Source: Mucilaginibacter lappiensis
Lineage (GTDB): Bacteria; Bacteroidota; Bacteroidia; Sphingobacteriales; Sphingobacteriaceae
Direction of reading: 5' to 3'
DNA length: 24,000 nt
Assembly (NCBI RefSeq): GCF_900155965.1
Contig: NZ_FTMG01000016.1
Span: 6,035-30,034, forward strand
The translations under genes and the position numbers were made by a program. Numbering within the stretch: the first letter of the stretch is position 1; every line of letters starts with the position of its first letter. Under the pieces are notes generated by a model that was given only the letters and a program-made list of their open reading frames with translations, did no database searches and was not told the DNA's origin. Shown here one piece after another: positions 3 to 23,779 of the stretch.

Positions 3-506
3 GCACAAATGGCCGGGACATTAGGTGAAACAGAAACCGCTAAAAAATATCGGGCCATTGCCGAAGGCATGGTGCCTGAGTGGATAAAAATGGCTGACGC
101 CGGCGATCATTATGCACTCACTTTTGATAACAAAGATACCTGGAGCCAGAAATATAACCTGGTTTGGGACAAGGTCTTGAGCTTACATTTATTCCCTCAG
201 AAAGTTTATGATACCGAAACCCGGTACTATCTGACTAAAATAAATAAGTTCGGGATTCCGCTGGACAGCCGTAAATCATACACCAAGAATGACTGGATCG
301 TTTGGACGGCAACTTTTGCTCCTCAAAAGGATCAGTTCGAGGAGCTGATCAGGCCGCTTTATGTACATGCCCTGGAGACTCCATCACGCGTGCCGCTGAA
401 TGACTTTTACGATTCAAAAACGGGCATCAGGGAAAACTTCAAAGCAAGAAGTGTAGTTGGTGGTTTTTATATGAAAATGCTGGCTGATAAATTGAAAGCA
501 GAATAA
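3..506 (+). CDS. Glutaminase-A-like protein, C-terminal part (DUF1793-type region). The 5' end lies outside the window.
   Basis: The reading frame is open back to the window edge, with no stop in nt 3-8. The tail (KYNLVWDKVLSLHLFPQKVY...DSRKSYTKNDWIVWTATF) resembles the C-terminal domain of bacterial glutaminase-domain (DUF4965/DUF1793) proteins. Recognised from memory. Confidence 0.6.
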   Translation, partial: AQMAGTLGETETAKKYRAIAEGMVPEWIKMADAGDHYALTFDNKDTWSQKYNLVWDKVLSLHLFPQKVYDTETRYYLTKINKFGIPLDSRKSYTKNDWIVWTATFAPQKDQFEELIRPLYVHALETPSRVPLNDFYDSKTGIRENFKARSVVGGFYMKMLADKLKAE

Positions 507-12655: not shown

Positions 12656-13069
12656 AAATCAAAAATACTTAATGCATTTAATATTTTACATAGTTAAGAT
12701 AGGTTCGATATAAAGGGCTGGCCAAACTATTTCGACGAACATTAATGAACAAAAACTGGGTTAACATGAAAAGCTGCTATTTAGCATTAAAATTATATTA
12801 ACTTATTGATTTTTAATTAGTTAAATTTATTTCAACCATAAAAAGTGTAAACCATGTAAACCCACTTTTGTGATGAAATGGCCCGGCTATTTAGGGGTAT
12901 AGCCACCAAGGGGTATTGTTTAAAAAGGGCGTCATGCTGATTTCTATGATAAAAGCAAAAGGTTTTTAATTAAGAAAGCACTTTTTAATTCCCTCCCACG
13001 GGAGGGGTGCGTTGGGCAGGTGTAATGGCAGGGAGGGGTTTCTATGCACGATGATTATCCTGTTCCATA

Positions 13070-13579
13070 AAAGCCCCTTTCTCCCCTTCCCTCAATGTCA
13101 TTAAGTTAAGGGGAAACGCAAAAGCAATTCCGCAAAAGCCCCCTCTAAACGGCGACGCCCTCATGTAATAATCTCCCCCGGAAGGGGAGACTTAGCTTCA
13201 ATTTTTTAAAGTGCTCCCTACCGGGGAGGATTTAGGTGGGGCTCCATGTGCTTAACTTAATGACATTGCCCCTTCCCTAGGGAAGCTACTGTGTGTACAC
13301 ATCTTTTTGATAAAACCCCGAAGGGGTTTCATGTCGGTAGAAATAGGATCAAAAGAGGTTTACGTGCCGTAGGTACGTCACTATTGATCTTTGCAGGTCA
13401 AATAATGACACATCAATAGACCTGAATTAGGTTAGTTTAGTACCTACGGCACTAAAAAGAGGTAGAATTTTATTGTTTCTACCGACATTTTGCTCCTCTG
13501 GAGCGGCTTTTTCTAATTATTAGTGCATCAAAAAGATGTGTACACACAGTAGCCCTAGGGAAGGGGAGAAAGGGGCTTT
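13070..13579. repeat. Large imperfect palindromic element (possible MITE or structured element), interrupted by a nested insertion
   Basis: 13070-13092 (AAAGCCCCTTTCTCCCCTTCCCT) is the exact reverse complement of 13557-13579. After removing 13093-13278, the arm identity extends to 53 matched nt with one 3-nt indel. Internal arm pairs are 13331-13343 with 13476-13488, and 13364-13376 with 13440-13452. Confidence 0.7.
13093..13268. mobile_element. 176-bp MITE-like non-autonomous element with 18-bp perfect terminal inverted repeats (TIRs) and a 10-bp target-site duplication
   Basis: The TIRs are CAATGTCATTAAGTTAAG (13093-13110) and CTTAACTTAATGACATTG (13251-13268). The direct repeat CCCCTTCCCT flanks the element at 13083-13092 and 13269-13278. 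There is no ORF inside. Confidence 0.7.
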
Positions 13580-13593
13580 GGCTTCCTGAACGG

Positions 13594-13681
13594 CTGTCAT
13601 GCTGAGCCCCGTCTAAGTATGGTGGGCGGGCCTCTGCGCTCTACCCTTCGACGGAGCTCAGGGTGGCAGACCCCTTTTTTT
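13594..13681 (+). repeat. REP-like imperfect hairpin followed by a T-run (terminator-like on the plus strand)
   Basis: The arms 13594-13617 and 13646-13669 pair at 21 of 24 positions when read as plus-strand RNA (19 Watson-Crick, 2 G-U). T7 lies at 13675-13681. The GTCATGCTGAGC ... GCTCAG arm motif resembles intergenic repeats that are common in Sphingobacteriaceae (from memory). Confidence 0.5.
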
Positions 13682-13691
13682 AACATTTCTG

Positions 13692-14144
13692 TTACTTTAT
13701 TTTCAGGCTTTGGGCGGTTGCCAATAGCTCTTCCGCTGTCATAAAGCCTTCGGCTTTTTTGGCAATGCCGCCATCGGCATTTAAAAAGAACAGCGTTGGC
13801 GTTGCTCTGATCTTATACCTGTCGTTTAGCTTGTGCCCTTCGGGGCTATCGATATCAATGGCTACATCTACAAATTGCTGGTTGTATACATCACCCAATT
13901 TTTTCTGAACCAATACTTCCTGTTCCATTTTTTTGCAGGTAGGGCACCAGGAAGCATGGGCAAATACAAACAAAGGTTTATTTTCTGCTTTGGCAATTTC
14001 CTCGGCTTGTGCCAAAGAAGTGATTTTGAAATTTACCCCATCATGTGAACTTAACATGGGCTTGTATCTCCTGGTGCAGGAAGTAATACCGAAAGACAGG
14101 CCAGCAATGGCCGCGATCATAAATAATTTTTGAAATATTTTCAT
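13692..14144 (-). CDS. Thioredoxin-fold lipoprotein (Thioredoxin_7/DsbD-gamma-like, CxxC)
   Basis: It has a lipoprotein signal (LSFGITSC) and a WCPTC active-site motif within FAHASWCPTCKKM. Length is 150 aa. Confidence 0.8.
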   Translation of the reverse strand: MKIFQKLFMIAAIAGLSFGITSCTRRYKPMLSSHDGVNFKITSLAQAEEIAKAENKPLFVFAHASWCPTCKKMEQEVLVQKKLGDVYNQQFVDVAIDIDSPEGHKLNDRYKIRATPTLFFLNADGGIAKKAEGFMTAEELLATAQSLKIK

Positions 14145-14162: not shown

Positions 14163-14810
14163 TTATGCAACTTTTAACTGGATTTTCCGAAAGATGATCT
14201 TATACGCCAGCACTACTCCGGTTAATAATAAAGTACAACCCAATACCCAGTTGATGAGATTGTGTTGGGCTTTCAACACATTCATGAGATAGTTTCCTGC
14301 GCAGCCGTAAATTAGAAACGCCAAGCAGGTACCCGTACCAATAGCCGTTATATATATGTTGTAATTAGCCGCATCGGAGTATAATACCTTTCTGCCTTTT
14401 AGTACCGCCGTCCATCCCAGCCAAAACGGAATATGGAGCGGATTAAGCAAACTGAGCACCAGTCCCGAGTAAAATGGCTGCATGCCTATAAATGGCAGGG
14501 TATCCTCAAAATTGCGCATGTGAAATGCCGCTTCCAGACTTTTATAGGCCAGGTACAAAATGGCAAAGCAAAATACCACACTTAAGTATCTGAATAGTTT
14601 TTGTAGATGACCCAACTTATCGAGTAAAAACAGCGCTACCCTAACCAGGCTTACTTCAACCAAAATGGCGGCAAACCCAAATTCAAAGGCACCCATGAAA
14701 TTATTATTGAGCGCATAATTGGCTACACTAGTATTTAAGGTACCAATAGGCAATGCCCCAATAAAACTAATACTGAAAGCGGCAAAAAATAATTTAAAAT
14801 ATCTGGACAT
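14163..14810 (-). CDS. LysE/RhtB-type small-molecule exporter-like membrane protein
   Basis: 215 aa with about six hydrophobic segments. The N-terminus (FIGALPIGTLNTSVANYAL) resembles the LysE-family translocator pattern. The family call is tentative. Confidence 0.55.
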   Translation of the reverse strand: MSRYFKLFFAAFSISFIGALPIGTLNTSVANYALNNNFMGAFEFGFAAILVEVSLVRVALFLLDKLGHLQKLFRYLSVVFCFAILYLAYKSLEAAFHMRNFEDTLPFIGMQPFYSGLVLSLLNPLHIPFWLGWTAVLKGRKVLYSDAANYNIYITAIGTGTCLAFLIYGCAGNYLMNVLKAQHNLINWVLGCTLLLTGVVLAYKIIFRKIQLKVA

Positions 14811-14812
14811 GG

Positions 14813-16600
14813 TTAGGCAATCAGTTTTAAATAGTTGGTATTATCTTTTAACATTTTCATGCCTTCTGTGTAGGTCATGTATTTAAGATTTTTATTTTTC
14901 AGGTTGATGGCGCTGATATCATGTAGAAGCTTCCAATGTTTCATGATCTCTTTCCAGGCAAAAAATATGGAATGTTTAGGGTCATAAATATGGGTAGGTT
15001 CGCTGCCAGCTCCGTTCAACTCGATGATAGTAAAGTTTTTTCCCTGGCATAGTTCTTCCCAGGTATTGTACATCACATCCATCCTGCCGAAATAAAACTC
15101 AGGTATCTGCCGGCAAACAGCATCAATATTTTGGGTTAATTCCTCCGAGATCAAATGTGTTAGATCAATAAATTTAGCGCCCCTGGCGTGGTTGCCATAA
15201 GGAACCAATACCCGCTTTTCGTCTAAAGGTAATATCTCTTGAAGTTCAGTAGCATGGGTGATCATTAGCTCGGGTAACTGCAACAAATAGCGGGGTTCTT
15301 TGGCCATCAATTCGGCAATGGTGGATATGCCATTACCCGTAACTGTTAAAAATTCCTTACCCACAATACCCGATATATGACCTTTATCCTCACCCGGAAT
15401 CCTGTAATAAAATATCCCTACCTCATGTTGATATGGAACAAAAGCCTGCACTAAAAAATCAACTTTCATGGATTGTACGTATTGAGTTAGTTCCTGGTCG
15501 TTGTATATTTTCTTAACCAGTATGCCCCGGCCGCCTATATCGGGTTTCAGTATTAGTGGATAGCTTAAATTTTCTTGTTTGATGACTTGTTTTATTTGTT
15601 CTATCGGTGTTCTTGCTTTAAAGAAAAAAGTTTCCGGTTTGTATGGTTCGGGCATCTGGTAATGGATGAGCCATTTGCTTTCCATAGCAAAGCCACCGTT
15701 TTCGATTTGAGGATTCGCGGTATTAAAAAAGAAAAACGAACGTGATTTGAAACTCAGCCAAAACCAGTAAAACATAATGGGTGCATACACCGAATTGAAT
15801 GACCAGTACTCCCAGTTAAAAAGCCTGATCAGGAAGCGTTTTACAGCAAAAAAGCGCGGCAATATACCTGATGGATATATCTGAGCGGGGCTTTCAATAG
15901 CAAGGTCATTTACATATTGTTTATTTTCTTTCAGATCTTCATAGGTCATGGTGATGTTGCCATGCATTACGCTAATATTGGTTACGCTCATTGTTTTCAT
16001 TTTTCCGTCGCGGTTAATAACCAGGCCGTCCCGCAGATCTCCTTCACCGGCGTGTTTGTGAAAGTGGAGGATGTCATTGGTAGTTTTGGGGTAATCGGAT
16101 CGTTGCCAGTTACTAAACCAGTTCTCCCGTTTACCGGCCGCCATTTGATCATATAATGTAGCTGACGACCAGATATGGGCTGTATTTATGCTGATGGATG
16201 TAGTATGTTTTTCTTCCCCATCCCAGCGGCATTCATACAATTCGCCCGAGGTATACAATATCAATGTGAATGGTTCAACACCATTCAAATCCGTGGTGTT
16301 ATAGTAATGGGCGGGTAGCTCTGCTTCGATAATTTCCTTCAATACAATTCCGCGGCTTTTCCGGTAATTTTCTTGTCTTGCATGTTTTACAAATGCGCCG
16401 TTAAGCAGTACCACCAGGTCGCCATTATTTTTGGCTGCTATCCAGCTACCATGCTTATCCGGATCTTTAGGATAAAGCAATTTCGCGTTCCCGGTGTTAT
16501 AAATTTCAGGAGCAAGGGCGATGCCCCGGGTTATATGCTCATCCCGATTGGAGGTCAGAAAGAAACCATCTTTGCCGGGAATATAGGTTACTGTGCACAT
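14813..16600 (-). CDS. Fusion protein with an N-terminal NRDE/TANGO2-like (Cys1, Ntn-like) domain, a hydrophobic linker and a C-terminal ATP-grasp ligase domain
   Basis: The N-terminus is MCTVTYIP...LTSNRDEH, which includes the NRDE motif. The middle is aromatic and hydrophobic (WEYWSFNSVYAPIMFYWFWLSFKSRSFFFF). The C-terminal half (PLILKPDIGGRGILVKKI...FLVQAFV...IELNGAGSEPTHIYD) looks like an ATP-grasp domain. Its start overlaps the DinB gene by 13 nt. Confidence 0.7.
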   Translation of the reverse strand: MCTVTYIPGKDGFFLTSNRDEHITRGIALAPEIYNTGNAKLLYPKDPDKHGSWIAAKNNGDLVVLLNGAFVKHARQENYRKSRGIVLKEIIEAELPAHYYNTTDLNGVEPFTLILYTSGELYECRWDGEEKHTTSISINTAHIWSSATLYDQMAAGKRENWFSNWQRSDYPKTTNDILHFHKHAGEGDLRDGLVINRDGKMKTMSVTNISVMHGNITMTYEDLKENKQYVNDLAIESPAQIYPSGILPRFFAVKRFLIRLFNWEYWSFNSVYAPIMFYWFWLSFKSRSFFFFNTANPQIENGGFAMESKWLIHYQMPEPYKPETFFFKARTPIEQIKQVIKQENLSYPLILKPDIGGRGILVKKIYNDQELTQYVQSMKVDFLVQAFVPYQHEVGIFYYRIPGEDKGHISGIVGKEFLTVTGNGISTIAELMAKEPRYLLQLPELMITHATELQEILPLDEKRVLVPYGNHARGAKFIDLTHLISEELTQNIDAVCRQIPEFYFGRMDVMYNTWEELCQGKNFTIIELNGAGSEPTHIYDPKHSIFFAWKEIMKHWKLLHDISAINLKNKNLKYMTYTEGMKMLKDNTNYLKLIA

Positions 16601-17088
16601 GCCTTCCTGTATTTAAGTGTGGAGGCCGCAACTCCAAATTCTTCAGGGATATCAATCTCCGATACAGCATTAATACCGATGCGGATAAGTGCCATGTGGT
16701 GAACGGTATGCTCCATATTGTAAACCAGTTCGCGTAAATAGTTAGTTACTACTTCTGCCTGGTGATCAGCATCGGCTCCGTACTCTACATGTAAAGCAAA
16801 GCTCTTGTCGGGCTTATCTAAATGATCAGCTATTTGATGTAGTGCTGCAATGGCTGCGTTTTTATCAGATTCGATAGCATGGTTCCGGATACGTTTATCA
16901 TAATCAACCACCCCGCTTTCATAACCTTTATACAGTTCGATAAAAAACTCCAGGATGTGGCGAGTATGCTGCCCTATGCTTGAATGGGATAATAATTTTA
17001 CGGGTTGTGTATACTGTTCGTTTGTAAGATTATCTATAACAAACTCCAGTTGCTCCAATAAATTTATTATTGGCTTTTTAAGTTTCAT
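16588..17088 (-). CDS. DinB family (four-helix-bundle, metal-dependent) protein
   Basis: 166 aa. It carries His-rich motifs typical of DinB/YfiT-like proteins (GQHTRHILEF and EHTVHHMALI). Confidence 0.75.
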   Translation of the reverse strand: MKLKKPIINLLEQLEFVIDNLTNEQYTQPVKLLSHSSIGQHTRHILEFFIELYKGYESGVVDYDKRIRNHAIESDKNAAIAALHQIADHLDKPDKSFALHVEYGADADHQAEVVTNYLRELVYNMEHTVHHMALIRIGINAVSEIDIPEEFGVAASTLKYRKACAQ

Positions 17089-17110: not shown

Positions 17111-17512
17111 CTATGCGTGAATAAATGGGATATAGGACACCAATTGTTTTCTGAATATCAACAGGAGGATGGAACAGCAAATAAAAACTGCTAATGCCAG
17201 TACAAATAATTGTCCTCCGTCGTTTTGTACAACGATGCCTAATTTGGTGAGGTGTGACAGCAGTGCACCGGCCATAATGCCTACTGCTAATAACGCACCC
17301 AGGCTGGTGGTTTTGGGAATTAACAACAGGATGGAGGCTATCAGTTCTAAAGAGCCGATCCCGATTCGTCCCCAGGGCTCTAAACCAAGGGTTGAAAAAA
17401 TATATACTGATTCCGGGGCTGCTGTAAACTTAAAATATAAGGTTTGGAGCATAATTATCGCGGCGGCAAGGCGCAATACCCAGGCTAAAATATTGATGGG
17501 TGTACTTGTCAT
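17111..17512 (-). CDS. DoxX family inner-membrane protein
   Basis: 133 aa with four hydrophobic helices. The pattern (LRLAAAIIMLQTLYFKF...GSLELIASILLLIPKT...GIMAGALLSHL) is typical of DoxX. Confidence 0.78.
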   Translation of the reverse strand: MTSTPINILAWVLRLAAAIIMLQTLYFKFTAAPESVYIFSTLGLEPWGRIGIGSLELIASILLLIPKTTSLGALLAVGIMAGALLSHLTKLGIVVQNDGGQLFVLALAVFICCSILLLIFRKQLVSYIPFIHA

Positions 17513-17523
17513 AATTTTATTTT

Positions 17524-18210
17524 TTAATGATGTTGGGCGATTGGGGTATGATTTGTAGCTAACCTCAATGCAGCCTTGGTTATATCACGACCAGCCTCTT
17601 GTTTGGATTGAAGCGGGAATGATTGAAATACCACATCTTTATTGATGATGGTGATCTTATTGGTATCAAAACCGAAGGTAGCTCCGCTATCCTGGGTTGA
17701 GTTTAGTACAATAAGGTCGAAGTTCTTTTTATATAGTTTATGTACTGCATTTTGCTCCTCGTTATTTGTCTCTAAAGCAAAACCTACTGCAATTTGATCG
17801 TTCCGTTTCACCTGCCCGAATTCACAGGCGATGTCTACATTCTTAACCATTTTCAGCTCAAATTCACTTGCCGATTTCTTCATCTTATAGGTGAAAATTT
17901 CGGCGGGTTTATAATCAGCAACCGCCGCTGCAAAAACAACGATCTGTGCCGATTGGAAATAGGGCTGGCTGGCCGCAAACATTTCATCCGCCGATTGAAC
18001 ATGAATAATGCTGAGGTTAGGATGAGCTAATGCTAAACCTACCGGGCCAGATACCAGGACAACAGTGCAACCCTGCTCTAAGAAAGCGGAGGCGATAGCA
18101 TAACCCATTTTGCCCGATGAGTGATTACTGATATAGCGCACCGGGTCAATGGCTTCCCGGGTAGGCCCCACGGTAATTAATACCAAAGGACCCTTTGTGG
18201 TGGTGTTCAT
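17524..18210 (-). CDS. Stand-alone CoaB-type phosphopantothenate--cysteine ligase domain protein (no CoaC flavoprotein domain)
   Basis: 228 aa. It aligns by eye to the C-terminal half of E. coli Dfp/CoaBC (ITVGPTREAIDPVRYISNHSSGKMGYAIA, AAAVADYKP, MVKNVDI, VGFALETNN). Confidence 0.85.
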   Translation of the reverse strand: MNTTTKGPLVLITVGPTREAIDPVRYISNHSSGKMGYAIASAFLEQGCTVVLVSGPVGLALAHPNLSIIHVQSADEMFAASQPYFQSAQIVVFAAAVADYKPAEIFTYKMKKSASEFELKMVKNVDIACEFGQVKRNDQIAVGFALETNNEEQNAVHKLYKKNFDLIVLNSTQDSGATFGFDTNKITIINKDVVFQSFPLQSKQEAGRDITKAALRLATNHTPIAQHH

Positions 18211-18216
18211 GACGGG

Positions 18217-18660
18217 TTAGTTATTGTCCTTTATTGCAGGCCATTTTTCATCGGCCGTTTTGATCAGGTTTTGCTGATCTTTTGACCACATCTCTTTCAC
18301 CTTGCTGTTGTAGTTGAAATAAAGCTTATCGTTTACTACTGTCCAGGTATCAGTTTGAGTAGGAGCCTTGTGCCCTTGTGATAAACCATAAGCGCAATAA
18401 CCACCATATTGAGGAGCATATTTATCCGGATCGGATTTAAATGCTTCCAGATTTTTGCGGGATGCGAAAAGCCAGGTGGCTTCTTTCCATTGGTAGCTCA
18501 GGCTATCAGAGCCCTTCATTGGTTTTGACTCTGTAAAAAAGGCAACTGGATCGTAACCTTTAATGGCTTTACCGCCAGGTGCAAATATTTCTGATTTTTG
18601 TGCTTTTGCCTGTGCTATTCCTAAAAAAGCGATGAAGGCGATAAGAATGGTGCGTTTCAT
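18217..18660 (-). CDS. Secreted YHS-domain protein (paralog B)
   Basis: It has a signal peptide. The motifs GYDPVAFF and YAPQYGGYCAYG match the YHS-domain proteins that are common in Bacteroidota. Confidence 0.75.
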   Translation of the reverse strand: MKRTILIAFIAFLGIAQAKAQKSEIFAPGGKAIKGYDPVAFFTESKPMKGSDSLSYQWKEATWLFASRKNLEAFKSDPDKYAPQYGGYCAYGLSQGHKAPTQTDTWTVVNDKLYFNYNSKVKEMWSKDQQNLIKTADEKWPAIKDNN

Positions 18661-18708: not shown

Positions 18709-19179
18709 TTACTGAATGATCTTGGCCCAGTTAGCATCGGCTTTTCTTTTAAGATTGCTTTCGTCTTTATCCCAGGATTTTTTGGTGTTATTAAAAAACT
18801 TATTGTAGAAAAGGTAAAGCTTACCATCAAGCAGTTTAAAAGTGCCGGGATCAATATCTACCTTCTCGCCGGTTGCTCCCATGGCATAAGCACACCAGCC
18901 GCCGTATTGTGGCTGATATTTAGCAGGGCTGGCTTTAAACAGATCCCTGTTTTGTATTGATGAAAAACGGTAGGTGATACCTTCTATAACGAGAGTAATA
19001 TCTTTTTTTCCTTCCTGAGCTTTGTGGGCGGTGAAGTAGGAAACCGGGTCATAACCCCTGATAGCTAATCCGGAATCATCCAGGTTAAATTGTTTTTTGT
19101 GAAATTCGGTAGCGTTTTGTGCTGAAGCTACGCGAATAATAAATAGAGCTGCAACAAGCAGGGCGAACATTTTTTTCAT
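18709..19179 (-). CDS. Secreted YHS-domain protein (paralog A)
   Basis: It has a signal peptide. The motifs GYDPVSYF and YQPQYGGWCAYA are present. It is a clear paralog of the adjacent gene. Confidence 0.75.
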   Translation of the reverse strand: MKKMFALLVAALFIIRVASAQNATEFHKKQFNLDDSGLAIRGYDPVSYFTAHKAQEGKKDITLVIEGITYRFSSIQNRDLFKASPAKYQPQYGGWCAYAMGATGEKVDIDPGTFKLLDGKLYLFYNKFFNNTKKSWDKDESNLKRKADANWAKIIQ

Positions 19180-19386: not shown

Positions 19387-20508
19387 CTATGGCTTTTTTT
19401 CTTCCAAAACTGTTTTTTTAATTGGAGAAAGCTGACCAAAAATATCTGTTATCTGCAGGGCTATATAATAATCCTGGGCTTTCAGATTCATACCTTTAAC
19501 TAAAAAACCTGTGCTGGTGAGGTCCGGGTCAGTTCCTTTGATAGATGCAATGGGATTGCCAGCATATGAGCTATTTTCATATATTTTTATCTCATAGCTT
19601 AACTGTGGTGTTGCGGTTGGTAACATGCTCCAGTTTACAAAGATCTTTTTCTGTGAATGATCATAATAGGATGCCAGGTCATAAATACTAGCCGGCAGAA
19701 TCTCTGGTTTATCTTTTTGATGAGTGGGATAAAAAGTTTTCGGCTGTCCCGGAGTTGTACCGCATGAAGTTATTTTTACACCATCATTACCATATTTTTC
19801 CGCCTTCCATGAACCGTCACCTGCTTCAGCTACCAGGGAGTCCGGATGTGCCCATTTGTTCTGATCGGTTAACATCCAGTAAGATTTGTAAACCGCTGTT
19901 CTGGATCTTTTCTGCTCATCGGCAAAGTTTTCCAGGAAACTGCCAATATCGCCATGAAGCATAGCTTCCTTTTCGGGCACCACAAAGGTTACATAATGCC
20001 GGTAAGTTTTCTCGCTTTGGTCATATATCCAGTAACCAACCATTGTTGTAGAATCATTTACTGTCCATCGTTTTACAATATTGGTGTACCAATGATCGGG
20101 CTTCCAACCAAAATCGGCATGTGAGTGCAATCCGGTCCCCTCACCACCAAAGCCACCAACAAAAGTTAGCGGGTCCTTATACTGTGCTGATAACTGAACC
20201 TTGTTAGGAAAATCCCAGATGGAAAATATGTTATTGGGCATACGTGTTTCATTTAATCCCGCCTTTTGTATCCCGCAATAACCACCGCTTTTGCCAATAC
20301 CAAACTGCACACTGCAGGCATAAGTATATGGAGCCAAGCCATCTGCCGGAAACATCACATCAGCCATCATCAGTTCGGCTTTAATCTTATTCATTTTTAC
20401 CGTTTTTACATATGGCCCCCATTTTGGACAGCTCTGCTGAGCAAGGCTATATGTAGCCGTGGCTAGTGTTAGTATCGGAATAAAAAGGTACTTTATATTT
20501 AATTTCAT
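19387..20508 (-). CDS. Secreted DUF3472-like protein with a C-terminal Fn3/Ig-like module
   Basis: 373 aa with a signal peptide. The segments GKSGGYCGIQ...IFSIWDFP...GGFGGEGTGLHSH resemble DUF3472. The family call is from memory only. Confidence 0.5.
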   Translation of the reverse strand: MKLNIKYLFIPILTLATATYSLAQQSCPKWGPYVKTVKMNKIKAELMMADVMFPADGLAPYTYACSVQFGIGKSGGYCGIQKAGLNETRMPNNIFSIWDFPNKVQLSAQYKDPLTFVGGFGGEGTGLHSHADFGWKPDHWYTNIVKRWTVNDSTTMVGYWIYDQSEKTYRHYVTFVVPEKEAMLHGDIGSFLENFADEQKRSRTAVYKSYWMLTDQNKWAHPDSLVAEAGDGSWKAEKYGNDGVKITSCGTTPGQPKTFYPTHQKDKPEILPASIYDLASYYDHSQKKIFVNWSMLPTATPQLSYEIKIYENSSYAGNPIASIKGTDPDLTSTGFLVKGMNLKAQDYYIALQITDIFGQLSPIKKTVLEEKKP

Positions 20509-20532
20509 GTGCTTTAAATAAGCTTAAATTAA

Positions 20533-21528
20533 CTAGTTGTGTGCTGCATCTATCGTTTGTTCTACTACCAGGTAAGAGCCCGGTACGTATATGCGTATAG
20601 GGAACCGAAGATTCAAACTATACATTCCATCGGGTAATCCGTCATTATGCACAAACTGGGTAGGTATCCTCTGGTAAATATTAAATTGGTTACCTAAGGT
20701 ATTTAATGGAAATGGCGTAAATGGGAATCTAAACACCGAGGCATCGTCGGTATAATAATATGATTTAGTGTACTGCTGTAATGATTGTAAGTAAGGCGGA
20801 TTAGGATTTAACCCAGCGGCCGGCCGGCTGATGATCTCTCCTTTTTTAGGATTAAAAAATACGCCGTTTTTATCCTTATACTTAACAGTGATCACATTCG
20901 GGGTATCAGCAACTCTGGTTACCGTTAACAATGGCGGTTTACCCACTACAGATTTACTTTCATTACCAACCATTATCCTGGTTTCGCTGGTTGATCCTAT
21001 AGTTGGTATCGACTCAAAGGTGGTGGTATCCCGGAGTAAGAAATCGCCTATTTTGGGGTATACTTTTGTCCCAGTTTCGTTTTTTATTTCCAGGTCAAAT
21101 TGATATTCTCCGGCGGGTAGTTGTAGGGCTCCGTAGTTGCCTAATATCTGGCCACTGGAAGGGTTAATGGAAATAGGCGCTACATTAATGGTTTTAAGTT
21201 TAGCATTGATTAGTTGCAGGGTGGTATCTGTTTTAGGGTCATACAATCCTGTCCAAACAGAAACGGGGTATGTTTTGCTAAACAGATCATCTACAATTTT
21301 ACCGGTTGCTTTATCATAAAAATGGATCACTTTTACCGAAAAAGGTTGCGAGGTCCCGTCGCCATTCAATCCTGCACTAAGAAATGCCCGCCCTTTTGGA
21401 ATGATGATAGGGCTTTGCTCATAATGAATATATGGGCTCAAAAAGCCAGTGCCTGTTTTTTTACATGCGTAGCTTGTTACTAAACATATAATGAGTAATG
21501 GGATATATATAAAGAGGTTACGTTTCAT
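20533..21528 (-). CDS. PUL-associated surface lipoprotein (DUF5007-like)
   Basis: The ORF track starts at 21576. The Met at 21528 gives a lipoprotein signal (MKRNLFIYIPLLIICLVTSYAC) and removes the overlap with the upstream gene. Its position after the SusD and fasciclin genes is typical of DUF5007 genes (from memory). Confidence 0.55.
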   Translation of the reverse strand: MKRNLFIYIPLLIICLVTSYACKKTGTGFLSPYIHYEQSPIIIPKGRAFLSAGLNGDGTSQPFSVKVIHFYDKATGKIVDDLFSKTYPVSVWTGLYDPKTDTTLQLINAKLKTINVAPISINPSSGQILGNYGALQLPAGEYQFDLEIKNETGTKVYPKIGDFLLRDTTTFESIPTIGSTSETRIMVGNESKSVVGKPPLLTVTRVADTPNVITVKYKDKNGVFFNPKKGEIISRPAAGLNPNPPYLQSLQQYTKSYYYTDDASVFRFPFTPFPLNTLGNQFNIYQRIPTQFVHNDGLPDGMYSLNLRFPIRIYVPGSYLVVEQTIDAAHN

Positions 21529-21535
21529 GTTGTGG

Positions 21536-22225
21536 TTATTGTTTAAAAAATAAAACATGTGAGTTACTAAGCACATTAAGTTGGCCTGTTGAAGTGGTAA
21601 GACCTGTTGTTTGGCACAGTACCCGAACCCCTACGGTATCTGGTATGTCTGATGCTACTACAACATTGGGTAGTTTCCCTTTTATAAATGTGTAGTACTC
21701 TATACTCGGAGCAGTACTGGTTGCAGAGGTGTAGCCTAAATTAGGGTCATATGTTTTTTCGAACGATACTACCGCCTGGCTCCCGGTTTTGGAAGTATTG
21801 AAAACAACCCCATTTTCGGTTAGTGAACCATAAGTTACTGTTTTAGGAATGATGTAAGTGTTCAGTGAATCTTTAAAAACGTTCAGATCGTATTTGATCA
21901 ACGTATCGATACTATACCTGGCAAAGGGATTCTTTTTTTGAGCCTGTAAAGTTTTTGCTTGTAAATAATTGTTAATGGCAAAATCTGTTGGTGCATAAAA
22001 TGTGATACCTTTTTGATTGATCACATCTTTTAATCCAGCCTTATCAACCACCAATAATAAAGTATCAAACATATTATATCTGTTACTTTTTAAATAATCA
22101 TAAGTGCTTAAAGTTGTGGTTGTGTTTTCCAGTTTACCACCAACGATATAATCGTTTTTTTTGCATGAAACCAGTATGATACCGGCCAATGCAGAAATCA
22201 TAAAGAATTTAATTATATTTTTCAT
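21536..22225 (-). CDS. Fasciclin (FAS1) domain lipoprotein
   Basis: It has a lipoprotein signal (ILVSC). The segments LLLVVDKAGLKDVINQKGITFYAPTDFAINNYL are typical of a FAS1 domain. Confidence 0.7.
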   Translation of the reverse strand: MKNIIKFFMISALAGIILVSCKKNDYIVGGKLENTTTTLSTYDYLKSNRYNMFDTLLLVVDKAGLKDVINQKGITFYAPTDFAINNYLQAKTLQAQKKNPFARYSIDTLIKYDLNVFKDSLNTYIIPKTVTYGSLTENGVVFNTSKTGSQAVVSFEKTYDPNLGYTSATSTAPSIEYYTFIKGKLPNVVVASDIPDTVGVRVLCQTTGLTTSTGQLNVLSNSHVLFFKQ

Positions 22226-22246
22226 TTTTTTATCTGTTTAAGTGAA

Positions 22247-23779
22247 TTATTGACCTGCTGATGCCCACCATGCATTTTGTGTTAGCAATGGATCCTGCGG
22301 TAAAAGTGTCCTCAAATCAAGCGGCCATAAATAGCCCCGGTTAGTTATGCGATTAGGCAAGTAGCCATCGATAGAATTATCATAGTTGGGGTTCGTGATA
22401 AGACCCGATCGTACAAGGTCAAAATACCATTGCCCTTCACCGTATAATTCTCTTCCCCGCTCGTCCATTATGGTATACAGCAAATCGTTTTGACTGGTAA
22501 AAACATAAGGATCAAGACCTGCTCTTTGACGTACTCGGTTGAGATACATTAAAGCGCTTCCCGTATTTCCCTGATTCAGATCAGCTTCGGCTTTTAGTAA
22601 GAAGATATCGGCAAGACGTAAAACAACCATGTTGTTGCTTACAAAAGGAAGCGTTTGCTGTTGTGGGTTTTGGTATATCACGTTGGCATACTTAACCATT
22701 AGGGTGCGGGCGCTTTGCAAACCATAAAAGGTTGATTTTATACGTACATCTTTTTTTGAGGCAGTGGTATCATATAAGCTATTAACCAGGTCCTTATTTA
22801 CCGACCATCCATAGCTTTTACCTTTTACAAATGGATCTCCTAAAAAAACCGAAAAAACGTTATTGTTGTTATCATTGGTAGCATCCCCGCGCTGTGCTTC
22901 ATTCTGATTGGGAGAATAGATCATGTTGATCTCAAAGATGCTTTCCGGGCTTTGGCCTTTAAAGATATGAGAAAAGTTGGCCCCTGTTTCAAGCGAATAC
23001 CCACCGTGTTGTATAACGCTATCGGCTGCTGCTGATGCCAATTGATATTGCTTTTGCCACATATACACCTTTGATAAAAGCGCAAATACTGATCCTTTAC
23101 CCGCCTGAACAGCAACTTGTGAGGCATTGGAATAATTATAACTTAAAAGGCTGGCACTTTTTTTCAGATCACTCACTACCTGGTTAAAACCATCCGCATC
23201 TTTGCTTCGGGCAATCGGCTTGGCGTTGATAGGATCTGTATAGGCTTGAGTAACAATCACAGGTTCTCCCCAAACTTGTGTGATATAATAATAGCAATAA
23301 GCCCTTATGAAATAAGCTTCGCCCATAATTTGATTTTTAGTAGCAACAGGATCATCCTGGAAATTGGCTGCGGCTATATTGGGTACCTTACTCAATATCA
23401 AATTACACTGGCTTATAACCTGGTAAAAACTGGTCCAGTTATGTAATATTGGTTCGCGATAAGGTACGTAGTTAAAGTTCCATTGATTGATAGAGCTTAA
23501 ACTGCCCAATTCAAAATTTTCATAAGCCGAAAATTCATTGGCCGTTGCATCACCAAAAATGAAATAAGCCTGGCCATTTGTTAAGGCTGTACGCAACAGG
23601 CCGTATGCACCTGCCAGTCCGCTTTCGGCAGCTCTTTCACTTGTCCAGAAATTATTGTCGGTTGGTGTATCAATTGGGCCTTCGTTAATGTACTTTTTGC
23701 AGGATGTAATTAATCCAACGCCGCAAATAATTATAGCTATAATGTATTTATTTATATACTTTTTCATCTGTAATTTCAT
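22247..23779 (-). CDS. RagB/SusD family nutrient-binding outer-membrane lipoprotein
   Basis: 510 aa with a lipoprotein signal (GLITSC). TPR-like SusD hallmarks are present (AYFIRAYCYYY..., RLADIFLLKAEA, ERGRELYGEGQWYFDLVR). It lies directly downstream of the SusC-like gene. Confidence 0.9.
   Translation of the reverse strand: MKLQMKKYINKYIIAIIICGVGLITSCKKYINEGPIDTPTDNNFWTSERAAESGLAGAYGLLRTALTNGQAYFIFGDATANEFSAYENFELGSLSSINQWNFNYVPYREPILHNWTSFYQVISQCNLILSKVPNIAAANFQDDPVATKNQIMGEAYFIRAYCYYYITQVWGEPVIVTQAYTDPINAKPIARSKDADGFNQVVSDLKKSASLLSYNYSNASQVAVQAGKGSVFALLSKVYMWQKQYQLASAAADSVIQHGGYSLETGANFSHIFKGQSPESIFEINMIYSPNQNEAQRGDATNDNNNNVFSVFLGDPFVKGKSYGWSVNKDLVNSLYDTTASKKDVRIKSTFYGLQSARTLMVKYANVIYQNPQQQTLPFVSNNMVVLRLADIFLLKAEADLNQGNTGSALMYLNRVRQRAGLDPYVFTSQNDLLYTIMDERGRELYGEGQWYFDLVRSGLITNPNYDNSIDGYLPNRITNRGYLWPLDLRTLLPQDPLLTQNAWWASAGQ

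Follow-up and report, generated by a model that had tools for sequence, protein, structure and literature searches.

An N-terminal cysteine amidase and a C-terminal ATP-grasp-fold synthetase with opposing activities are carried on one chain in glutathionylspermidine (GSP) synthetase/amidase (Gss) of Escherichia coli, a soluble enzyme that acts on glutathione and spermidine, in which the cysteine of the amidase is a redox switch and the amidase fold is CHAP/papain-like, not that of an N-terminal nucleophile (Ntn) enzyme. The biochemical function of TANGO2, the loss of which causes severe metabolic disease in humans, is disputed between a heme carrier, a binder of acyl-coenzyme A (acyl-CoA) and a Cys-Ntn hydrolase. 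A crystal-structure study of TANGO2 placed R26, D27 and N75 in a putative Cys-Ntn active site, proposed a hydrolase acting on fatty-acid derivatives, likened the protein to bile-salt hydrolase, ceramidase and NAAA, and found only nonspecific heme binding (PMC13044924); acyl-CoA is bound by human TANGO2 via its NRDE motif (PMC11867700), and the Shewanella NRDE protein HtpA, a bacterial TANGO2 homologue, is reported to aid cytochrome c maturation (PMC10470608). The subject of this report is an open reading frame (ORF) of the soil bacterium Mucilaginibacter lappiensis that joins an NRDE/TANGO2-type domain to an ATP-grasp ligase, on the minus strand of a 24,000-nucleotide stretch of contig NZ_FTMG01000016.1 (positions 6,035 to 30,034; hereafter the window, in whose numbering positions are given).

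The protein is widespread, uncharacterised and a new combination of known domain families; no published description of the fusion, or of the DinB-NRDE-ATP-grasp gene module to which it belongs, was found, the aminolipid/ornithine-lipid, TANGO2 and DedA literature included. With the human TANGO2/NRDE family (PF05742; structures 8sv7, 9bwa and, for CV2077, 3gvz; HtpA) it shares a Met-Cys start, the NRDE motif, aligned Arg, Asp and Asn residues and a predicted Ntn fold, but unlike members of that family its NRDE domain is fused, or in relatives operon-linked, to an ATP-grasp ligase. Gss may be regarded as the closest architectural precedent, having a cysteine amidase ahead of an ATP-grasp-fold synthetase and a similar stress context, but as an analogue in architecture only: the ORF has no Pfam match to CHAP amidase or GSP-synthetase domains. 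Judged from its sequence, the product is probably a bifunctional enzyme at the cytoplasmic face of the inner membrane, and the favoured reading, held tentatively at a probability of about 0.4, is that an interfacial amide ligase/amidase pair remodels amino-acid-containing lipids.

Domains and fusion of the NRDE-ATP-grasp protein

The ORF and its predicted parts are as follows.

14813..16600, minus strand: complete NRDE-ATP-grasp ORF (P0001), including the stop codon; 595 amino acids
15893..16600, minus strand: NRDE/TANGO2-type putative Cys-Ntn hydrolase domain, residues 1-236 (PF05742, E=5e-10)
15851..15892, minus strand: linker proper between the two domains, residues ~237-250, differing among homologues in both sequence and length
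15689..15850, minus strand: amphipathic helix and candidate aromatic membrane-anchor module of the ligase, residues 251-304, motif WEYWP...FFFFNxANPxIENGG
14816..15688, minus strand: ATP-grasp catalytic domain and C-terminal helices, residues 305-595

A preliminary description of this DNA had read positions 14813-16600 as one 595-residue ORF that opens with MCTVTY, carries SNRDEH and starts within the last codons of a DinB gene, and all of this stands: SNRDEH occupies residues 17-22, and the ATG (16598-16600) gives a 13-nt overlap with the upstream DinB-like ORF (16588-17088). More than 2000 homologues of the 595-residue protein exist, 50 of which were aligned over their full length at 48-87% identity; the best 120 are all of ~595 amino acids, come from Mucilaginibacter, Pedobacter, Chitinophaga, Puia and others, and bear no database name other than 'NRDE family protein'. 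Conservation of the 595-residue architecture is far beyond chance. The AlphaFold2 model of the protein has a mean predicted local distance difference test score (pLDDT) of 87.5 and a predicted template modelling score (pTM) of 0.59.

The physical fusion of the two domains, which the preliminary description had called unusual, is borne out by these homologues and by a survey of 80 species-representative Bacteroidia loci, to which the window is additional; the adjective was too strong, the fused form being present in many Sphingobacteriaceae, Chitinophagaceae and Spirosomataceae. The halves are fused in 18 of the 80 loci (the window being the 19th such case) and encoded by adjacent same-strand genes, with NRDE directly upstream, in 59, while three ligases have no NRDE gene directly upstream. 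Flavobacterium johnsoniae, which has OlsF, is a species with split genes. All fused forms fall into one well-supported clade of 20 rows, with two secondary splits, in a tree of the ligase half. A separate fusion places NRDE on hydrolase-DedA-ligase proteins of 1121-1158 amino acids in metagenomic lineages related to Planctomycetota sequences, so that NRDE appears to have been joined to the ligase in at least two independent events. With the halves encoded side by side as separate genes in most relatives, the fusion can be taken as a Rosetta-stone link, and the sequences compared here argue that it is real, recurrent and the mark of a functional connection between the halves. An assembly or annotation artefact joining two genes is extremely improbable: such an error is suggested by the two-gene state of most relatives, often in the same frame with a single stop codon between, whereas fused proteins of ~595 amino acids come from many independent assemblies, complete Mucilaginibacter chromosomes among them, the 18 fused species representatives form one clade, and the reading frame is open in the window, where the length of the linker is conserved.

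The two genes of the split pairs share a reading frame in 47 cases of 59 and lie in other frames in the remaining 12. Their stops are mostly TAA, some gaps carry additional stops, and often TAA is followed immediately by a start codon (for example L029:6109-6114 and L018:8721-8726). Readthrough or recoding of the stop codon is disfavoured by the mostly TAA stops, the further stops in the gaps and the 12 out-of-frame pairs, and the same-frame pairs are more likely to represent an inherited ancestral arrangement. One surveyed locus (L010) comes from a record titled as a Brevundimonas vancanneytii metagenome-assembled genome (MAG), and its ligase and neighbours nest in a Chitinophagaceae/Sphingobacteriales clade, with ~50% identity between ligase and window protein; probably the contig was placed in the wrong bin or the record carries the wrong name.

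The N-terminal half is NRDE-like, as previously described, with a Pfam TANGO2 match (PF05742) at residues 13-149 that scores 40.4 bits against a cut-off of 22.6 (42.8 bits in a genome-wide profile search), and with Foldseek matches of the AlphaFold2 model to human TANGO2 (8sv7, 9bwa) and bacterial CV2077 (3gvz) at a probability of 1.00. Residues C2, R19, D20, E21, N67, S82-R83-G84 and R158 are invariant or nearly so, and a profile of 20 such NRDE domains aligns R19, D20 and N67 with R26, D27 and N75 of human TANGO2. A four-layer alpha-beta-beta-alpha Ntn fold is predicted. Since the match spans only residues 13-149 at E=5e-10, against ~1e-78 for canonical bacterial NRDE proteins, the half appears to be a divergent TANGO2/NRDE subfamily that retains the catalytic Cys, Arg and Asp; a profile search of the M. 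lappiensis genome found no canonical NRDE paralogue. Heme trafficking, as reported for Shewanella HtpA (PMC10470608), with a ligase unrelated to NRDE catalysis, is a very improbable explanation, because the heme binding seen in the crystal study was nonspecific (PMC13044924), no heme or cytochrome-maturation genes are conserved nearby, and the domain, divergent as it is, has kept its catalytic residues.

That the C-terminal half is an ATP-grasp domain with its nucleotide-binding residues, as the preliminary description supposed, emerges from the family profile, the fold comparison and the pattern of invariant residues. Single-sequence ATP-grasp matches in Pfam stay below cut-off (RimK, 20.8 versus 21), and a profile of 36 distant members matches CphA2 (E=1.5e-11), GshAB (3.6e-9) and CphA1 (2.3e-7) in the PDB, with the E-x-N motif of CphA2 and GshAB aligned to invariant residues of the ligase family. 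Foldseek (E=7e-11) places the ligase half with GshF, cyanophycin synthetases and D-alanine--D-alanine ligase (Ddl), its matches including 3ln6, 7wae and 7ta5. K309, K352, R506, D508, E527, N529 and H537 are invariant in the 36 distant members, and in the 50 homologues LILKPDIGGRG (349-359) is invariant or nearly so, as is ELNGAGSEP, a motif noted earlier and located at 527-535. The half can thus be assigned by sequence to the carboxylate-amine ligases of the cyanophycin-synthetase/GshF/Ddl branch, and looks catalytically competent because its ATP- and Mg-binding and catalytic residues are invariant. CphA1, CphA2 and GshF (GshAB), the closest solved relatives by profile and fold, share these ATP- and Mg-binding residues, and in every one of the nearest solved relatives the reaction is the addition of an amino acid to an alpha-carboxylate. 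These enzymes have retained soluble N-domains or additional domains and work on peptides in solution, whereas the ORF has a module predicted to partition into the membrane instead.

Identity with Ddl was considered and rejected: PF07478 (Dala_Dala_lig_C) reaches 14.1 bits where the cut-off is 24, the Ddl models of NCBIfam reach only 12-14.5 bits where the cut-offs are 243-505, and the Ddl N-domain is absent from the ORF. The likeness to Ddl is confined to the general ATP-grasp fold, and the gene context is different. Some MAG annotations name split homologues of the ligase 'D-alanine--D-alanine ligase', a misannotation that is corrected here.

An N-terminal Met-Cys Ntn domain followed by ATP-dependent activation of a carboxylate is also the domain order expected of a glutamine-dependent amidotransferase resembling asparagine synthetase B, in which the Ntn domain would free ammonia, the ATP-grasp domain would amidate the activated carboxylate, and fusion would favour channelling. 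This is quite improbable, in that the Pfam and NCBIfam matches, taken up to E=1, include no family of class-II glutamine amidotransferases, the N-domain has as its structural neighbours TANGO2 proteins, which are compared to bile-salt hydrolase, ceramidase and NAAA (PMC13044924), one family has the ligase without an NRDE gene in the operon, and the interdomain arrangement is predicted with low confidence (pTM 0.59).

The highly aromatic stretch reported earlier is present at residues 262-292 (NWEYWSFNSVYAPIMFYWFWLSFKSRSFFFF), with F, W and Y making up 15 of the 34 residues from 262 to 295 against 13% of the whole protein, but it is not the interdomain linker that it was taken for. The linker lies at residues ~237-250, where the columns of the 50-homologue alignment are gapped and unconserved, pLDDT falls below 50 (residues 238-245), and the stop codon of split homologues is found at the junctions of the 59 split loci. 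The 50-homologue alignment gives the adjoining module (residues 251-304) the conserved pattern WEYWP...W..W...S.FFF..xNP.I.NGG, with E264, W266, Y272, W279, S288, F290-292, N296 and G303 invariant, and AlphaFold2 predicts helices at 249-261 and 268-286 with a pLDDT of ~95. Because the stretch is conserved throughout the family, in stand-alone ligases (~350 amino acids) and in all the other fusions, those with LysE, DedA or a hydrolase among them, it appears to be a conserved N-terminal anchor module of the ligase itself. The canonical ATP-grasp 'xK' start is reached already at K309, so that residues 251-304, two helices and a short conserved motif, take the place of the usual N-terminal substrate domain (pre-ATP-grasp, Rossmann-like), which has been replaced and has not just diverged.

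A membrane location, previously raised as a possibility, is plausible: the sole strongly favourable Wimley-White membrane-partitioning segment lies in the aromatic stretch (best window 266-284), and the ligase is fused to membrane domains elsewhere. A classical single-pass transmembrane helix between the domains is unlikely, given basic flanks that carry Lys and Arg and modest aliphatic hydrophobicity. As to membrane topology, we infer a monotopic or re-entrant anchor in preference to a membrane-crossing linker, because both flanking domains must be cytoplasmic (one for methionine removal, the other for ATP) and the flanks are basic.

Ligase relatives and aminolipid genes

Approximately 1000 representative relatives of the ligase half are found at E<1e-30, most of them stand-alone proteins. 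Other architectures are LysE-ligase (proteins P0128, P0145 and P0160 of other species, in which LysE is fused to the ligase N-terminus), DedA/VTT-ligase, alpha/beta-hydrolase-DedA-ligase, NRDE-hydrolase-DedA-ligase, ligase-YqcI/YcgG and ligase-MORN. The fusion of a transporter to a synthase in the LysE- and DedA-ligases resembles the logic of MprF, which is of the flippase-synthase fusion type. The anchored ligase module also occurs in other organisms among fusions with YqcI/YcgG domains and MORN repeats (P0233 and P0155). Together with a DinB-like protein, the NRDE-ligase pair constitutes an ancient three-gene module that is usually joined by DoxX, YHS-like proteins and a small translocator, which is LysE in the window and DedA/VTT in other phyla.

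Genes for aminolipid synthesis are repeated neighbours of this module outside the Bacteroidia. Another class of Bacteroidota has the gene order OlsB-like (PF13444), PlsC-like (PF01553), DinB, hydrolase-DedA-ligase, to which one family adds NRDE, YHS and DoxX. Algisphaera agarilytica and related contigs have DinB, TANGO2 and hydrolase-DedA-ligase with an OlsF-like bifunctional synthase and a YHS gene nearby, and one further contig has OlsB, PlsC, DinB, TANGO2 and ligase as a single run. In all, OlsB-like plus PlsC-like or OlsF-like genes adjoin DinB-(NRDE)-hydrolase-DedA-ligase in loci L081-L083, L085, L087-L089, L092 and L093. The ligase is present in 22 of 201 sampled Planctomycetota genomes, and OlsB/PlsC-type genes abut it in eight of the 19 loci examined, which were scanned with profile hidden Markov models in all stop-to-stop frames because greedy ORF calling hid real genes at high G+C content; the genomes with this adjacency are related, yet at least three different arrangements occur. 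OlsB/OlsA and OlsF have no sequence relationship to the ligase module, of which they are operon neighbours in several phyla, and are not adjacent to it in the window; a profile search of the M. lappiensis genome found one OlsF-like gene, at C15:194149-195903.

Three further observations concern these and similar genes. Directly upstream of DinB-TANGO2-hydrolase-DedA-ligase in one locus (L094:3200-5676) are genes for an alpha/beta-hydrolase and a GH3-family acyl-acid amido synthetase, the latter being a second kind of carboxylate-amine ligase in that operon. In loci of the Planctomycetota type, the OlsF-like synthase close to the module has a TMEM164-like gene next to it (L087:14521-15267 and L089:7436-8209). 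In M. lappiensis a second LysE paralogue is located ~700 bp from a PlsC-like acyltransferase gene (C13:37746-39848).

Neighbourhoods in at least three phyla suggest that the pair edits membrane lipids or lipid-like amides. The ligase would turn a carboxylate into an acyl-phosphate and couple this with an amine, with the substrate in or on the membrane, and the cysteine of the NRDE half, once the methionine is removed, would be the nucleophile on an amide (or thioester) bond in molecules of that class, either undoing the product of the ligase, as in a write/erase pair, or trimming a precursor. The missing soluble substrate domain, the putative aromatic anchor and the recurrent fusions with membrane translocators and a lipase-type hydrolase are most simply explained by a membrane-embedded substrate, and adjacency to aminolipid synthases is in keeping with this. 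The likeliest substrates would be amino-acid-containing membrane lipids of the ornithine, lysine or glycine type (N-acyl amino acids), which suit ATP-grasp chemistry because they have exactly one free carboxylate, and this head-group carboxylate may be extended or capped by the ligase.

Several results weigh against the proposal that aminolipids are remodelled. A search reaching 8 kb from the pair found no aminolipid synthase gene in any of the 80 Bacteroidia loci, nor in the window. Of 16 genomes from one Bacteroidota family (f2), 13 have the system and only one has an OlsF- or OlsB-like gene; a match to PF13444 of any strength is seen in only eight of the family's 61 genera, and a strong one in a single case, so its orthologues would work without a detectable OlsB-type enzyme. 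At the class level, OlsF is present in 14 of 30 ligase-positive genomes as against roughly 32 of 45 ligase-negative genomes. In another family (f28) the operons have no NRDE gene and a canonical NRDE gene is located elsewhere in the genome, which implies that the amidase is not always needed and speaks against channelling between the two active sites, as suggested in the preliminary description, being obligatory. Redox stress is a theme among the Bacteroidia neighbours (MsrB, AhpC/TSA, DM13, thioredoxin and ECF sigma factors) that fits other readings too, and the Kyte-Doolittle value of the anchor helix is only 0.77, so that a classical transmembrane span is not established. Strict dependence of the system on OlsF or OlsB was tested across genomes and rejected on the contrast within the f2 family.

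The NRDE half could instead be an acyl-transferring enzyme in which Cys2 moves an acyl group from acyl-CoA or acyl carrier protein to an amino acid, after which the ligase would extend the head group, giving an OlsB-independent route to lipo-amino acids. Isopenicillin-N acyltransferase is a Cys-Ntn enzyme that uses acyl-CoA. To our knowledge, acyltransferase activity has been shown for no NRDE protein; this alternative, which is wholly inferential and would be redundant in lineages with OlsB or OlsF next door, is judged improbable. It would be consistent with the binding of acyl-CoA by human TANGO2 through its NRDE motif (PMC11867700), with the presence of the system in a family largely devoid of PF13444 genes, and with the apparent anchoring of the ligase in the membrane.

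The gene neighbourhood in the window and in Bacteroidia

The NRDE-ATP-grasp gene is one of eight head-to-tail minus-strand genes, with gaps of at most 48 nt, that run from 19179 to 13692 in the order two YHS-like, CoaB-like, DoxX, DinB-like, NRDE-ATP-grasp, LysE and thioredoxin-like lipoprotein. Its neighbours are the following.

18217-18660 and 18709-19179, minus strand: tandem pair of YHS-like genes for secreted proteins (sub-threshold YHS matches, E=3.7e-6 and 0.0016)
17524..18210, minus strand: stand-alone CoaB-like gene, DFP C-terminal domain (PF04127, E=6.6e-64)
17111..17512, minus strand: DoxX-family membrane protein (Pfam DoxX_2/DoxX)
16588..17088, minus strand: DinB-like gene (DinB_2, E=0.001, below the Pfam cut-off)
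14163..14810, minus strand: LysE-type translocator (PF01810), beginning 2 nt past the stop codon of the ORF
13692..14144, minus strand: thioredoxin-like lipoprotein (Thioredoxin_2, E=1.4e-17), the last gene of the run

The conserved core of these neighbourhoods is DinB-NRDE-ATP-grasp, often with DoxX, YHS-like genes and LysE. The most constant partner is the DinB-like gene, orthologues of which match DinB/DinB_2 and occur in 71 of the 81 loci. DoxX is present in ~46 loci of the 81, and also in loci L082 and L119; the YHS-like cluster is present in ~38-44, and recurs in Planctomycetota loci; LysE is present in 33, in 30 of them at position +1. Rarer neighbours are ECF (extracytoplasmic function) sigma and anti-sigma factors, DM13, YceI, MsrB, AhpC/TSA and a separate alpha/beta-hydrolase, the gene for which is at +1 in eight Bacteroidia loci. 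The thioredoxin-like gene is lineage-specific, in a cluster of only two members. A link to coenzyme A through the CoaB-like neighbour was rejected, this gene accompanying the pair in only five loci, which are close relatives.

Such neighbours raise the alternative of a soluble redox-metabolite or small-peptide pathway, in which the product of the ligase would be a low-molecular-weight thiol, a metal-binding peptide or an amino-acid conjugate, to be trimmed or recycled by the NRDE domain, used by the DinB-like protein (as by DinB-fold thiol transferases) and exported by LysE, and the operon would serve stress defence. The glutathione-forming GshF domain is among the nearest solved relatives of the ligase, DinB, DoxX, thioredoxin-like, MsrB, AhpC/TSA and ECF sigma genes recur nearby, the amino-acid-type exporter LysE is translationally coupled, and the system has been retained in a family that lacks OlsB-type genes. 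A soluble pathway nevertheless leaves unexplained the invariant aromatic module, the fusions with DedA/VTT and alpha/beta-hydrolase, and the repeated adjacency of OlsB, PlsC and OlsF; the CoaB-like and thioredoxin genes of the window are lineage-specific (five and two loci), and a conserved partner gene for a cysteine or glutamate ligase is absent. It is, on this evidence, unlikely.

No Rfam match was found in the window, and a scan of the operon for sigma-70 promoters and terminators, which does not cover Bacteroidota promoters, gave no more sites than shuffled sequence. Just downstream of the operon, positions 12656-13691 comprise 1036 bp with no ORF of 45 or more amino acids and no Rfam match, composed of several families of short interspersed repeats (units of ~80-290 bp, 75-99% identity) with dozens of copies across many contigs of the same genome; the region looks like a nest of MITE/REP-like elements (miniature inverted-repeat transposable or repetitive extragenic palindromic elements). 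Upstream, positions 19387-23779 encode a DUF3472 protein, a 347-residue ORF with sub-threshold Pfam matches only, a fasciclin-domain protein and a SusD-family protein, and resemble the end of a locus of the polysaccharide-utilisation type, with no relation to the NRDE-ATP-grasp finding.

Proposed lipid editing and TANGO2 chemistry

Returning to the remodelling of amino-acid-containing lipids at the membrane interface, the stress-type neighbours make the write/erase logic of Gss attractive for the NRDE-ATP-grasp pair. A more specific proposal, which is doubtful at present, is that DinB-NRDE-ATP-grasp is an undescribed lipid-editing system in which the ligase adds an amino acid or amine to the head group of an N-acyl amino-acid lipid, giving lipodipeptide-type or capped aminolipids, which have no known gene, the TANGO2-type cysteine removes it, and the exposed cysteine acts as a redox switch. 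If true, the TANGO2 family would for the first time have a reaction that is chemically defined.

Reviews of aminolipids leave some biosynthetic steps unassigned and list no ATP-grasp enzyme (PMC11631085), and the module may account for unassigned steps of bacterial aminolipid biosynthesis. Fusions and operon conservation in several phyla appear to tie a bacterial TANGO2-type domain to ATP-dependent amide formation at the membrane. This would narrow the search for TANGO2 substrates to membrane-bound amides or carboxylates as candidates, and the NRDE-ATP-grasp pair offers a testable bacterial setting for TANGO2 chemistry.

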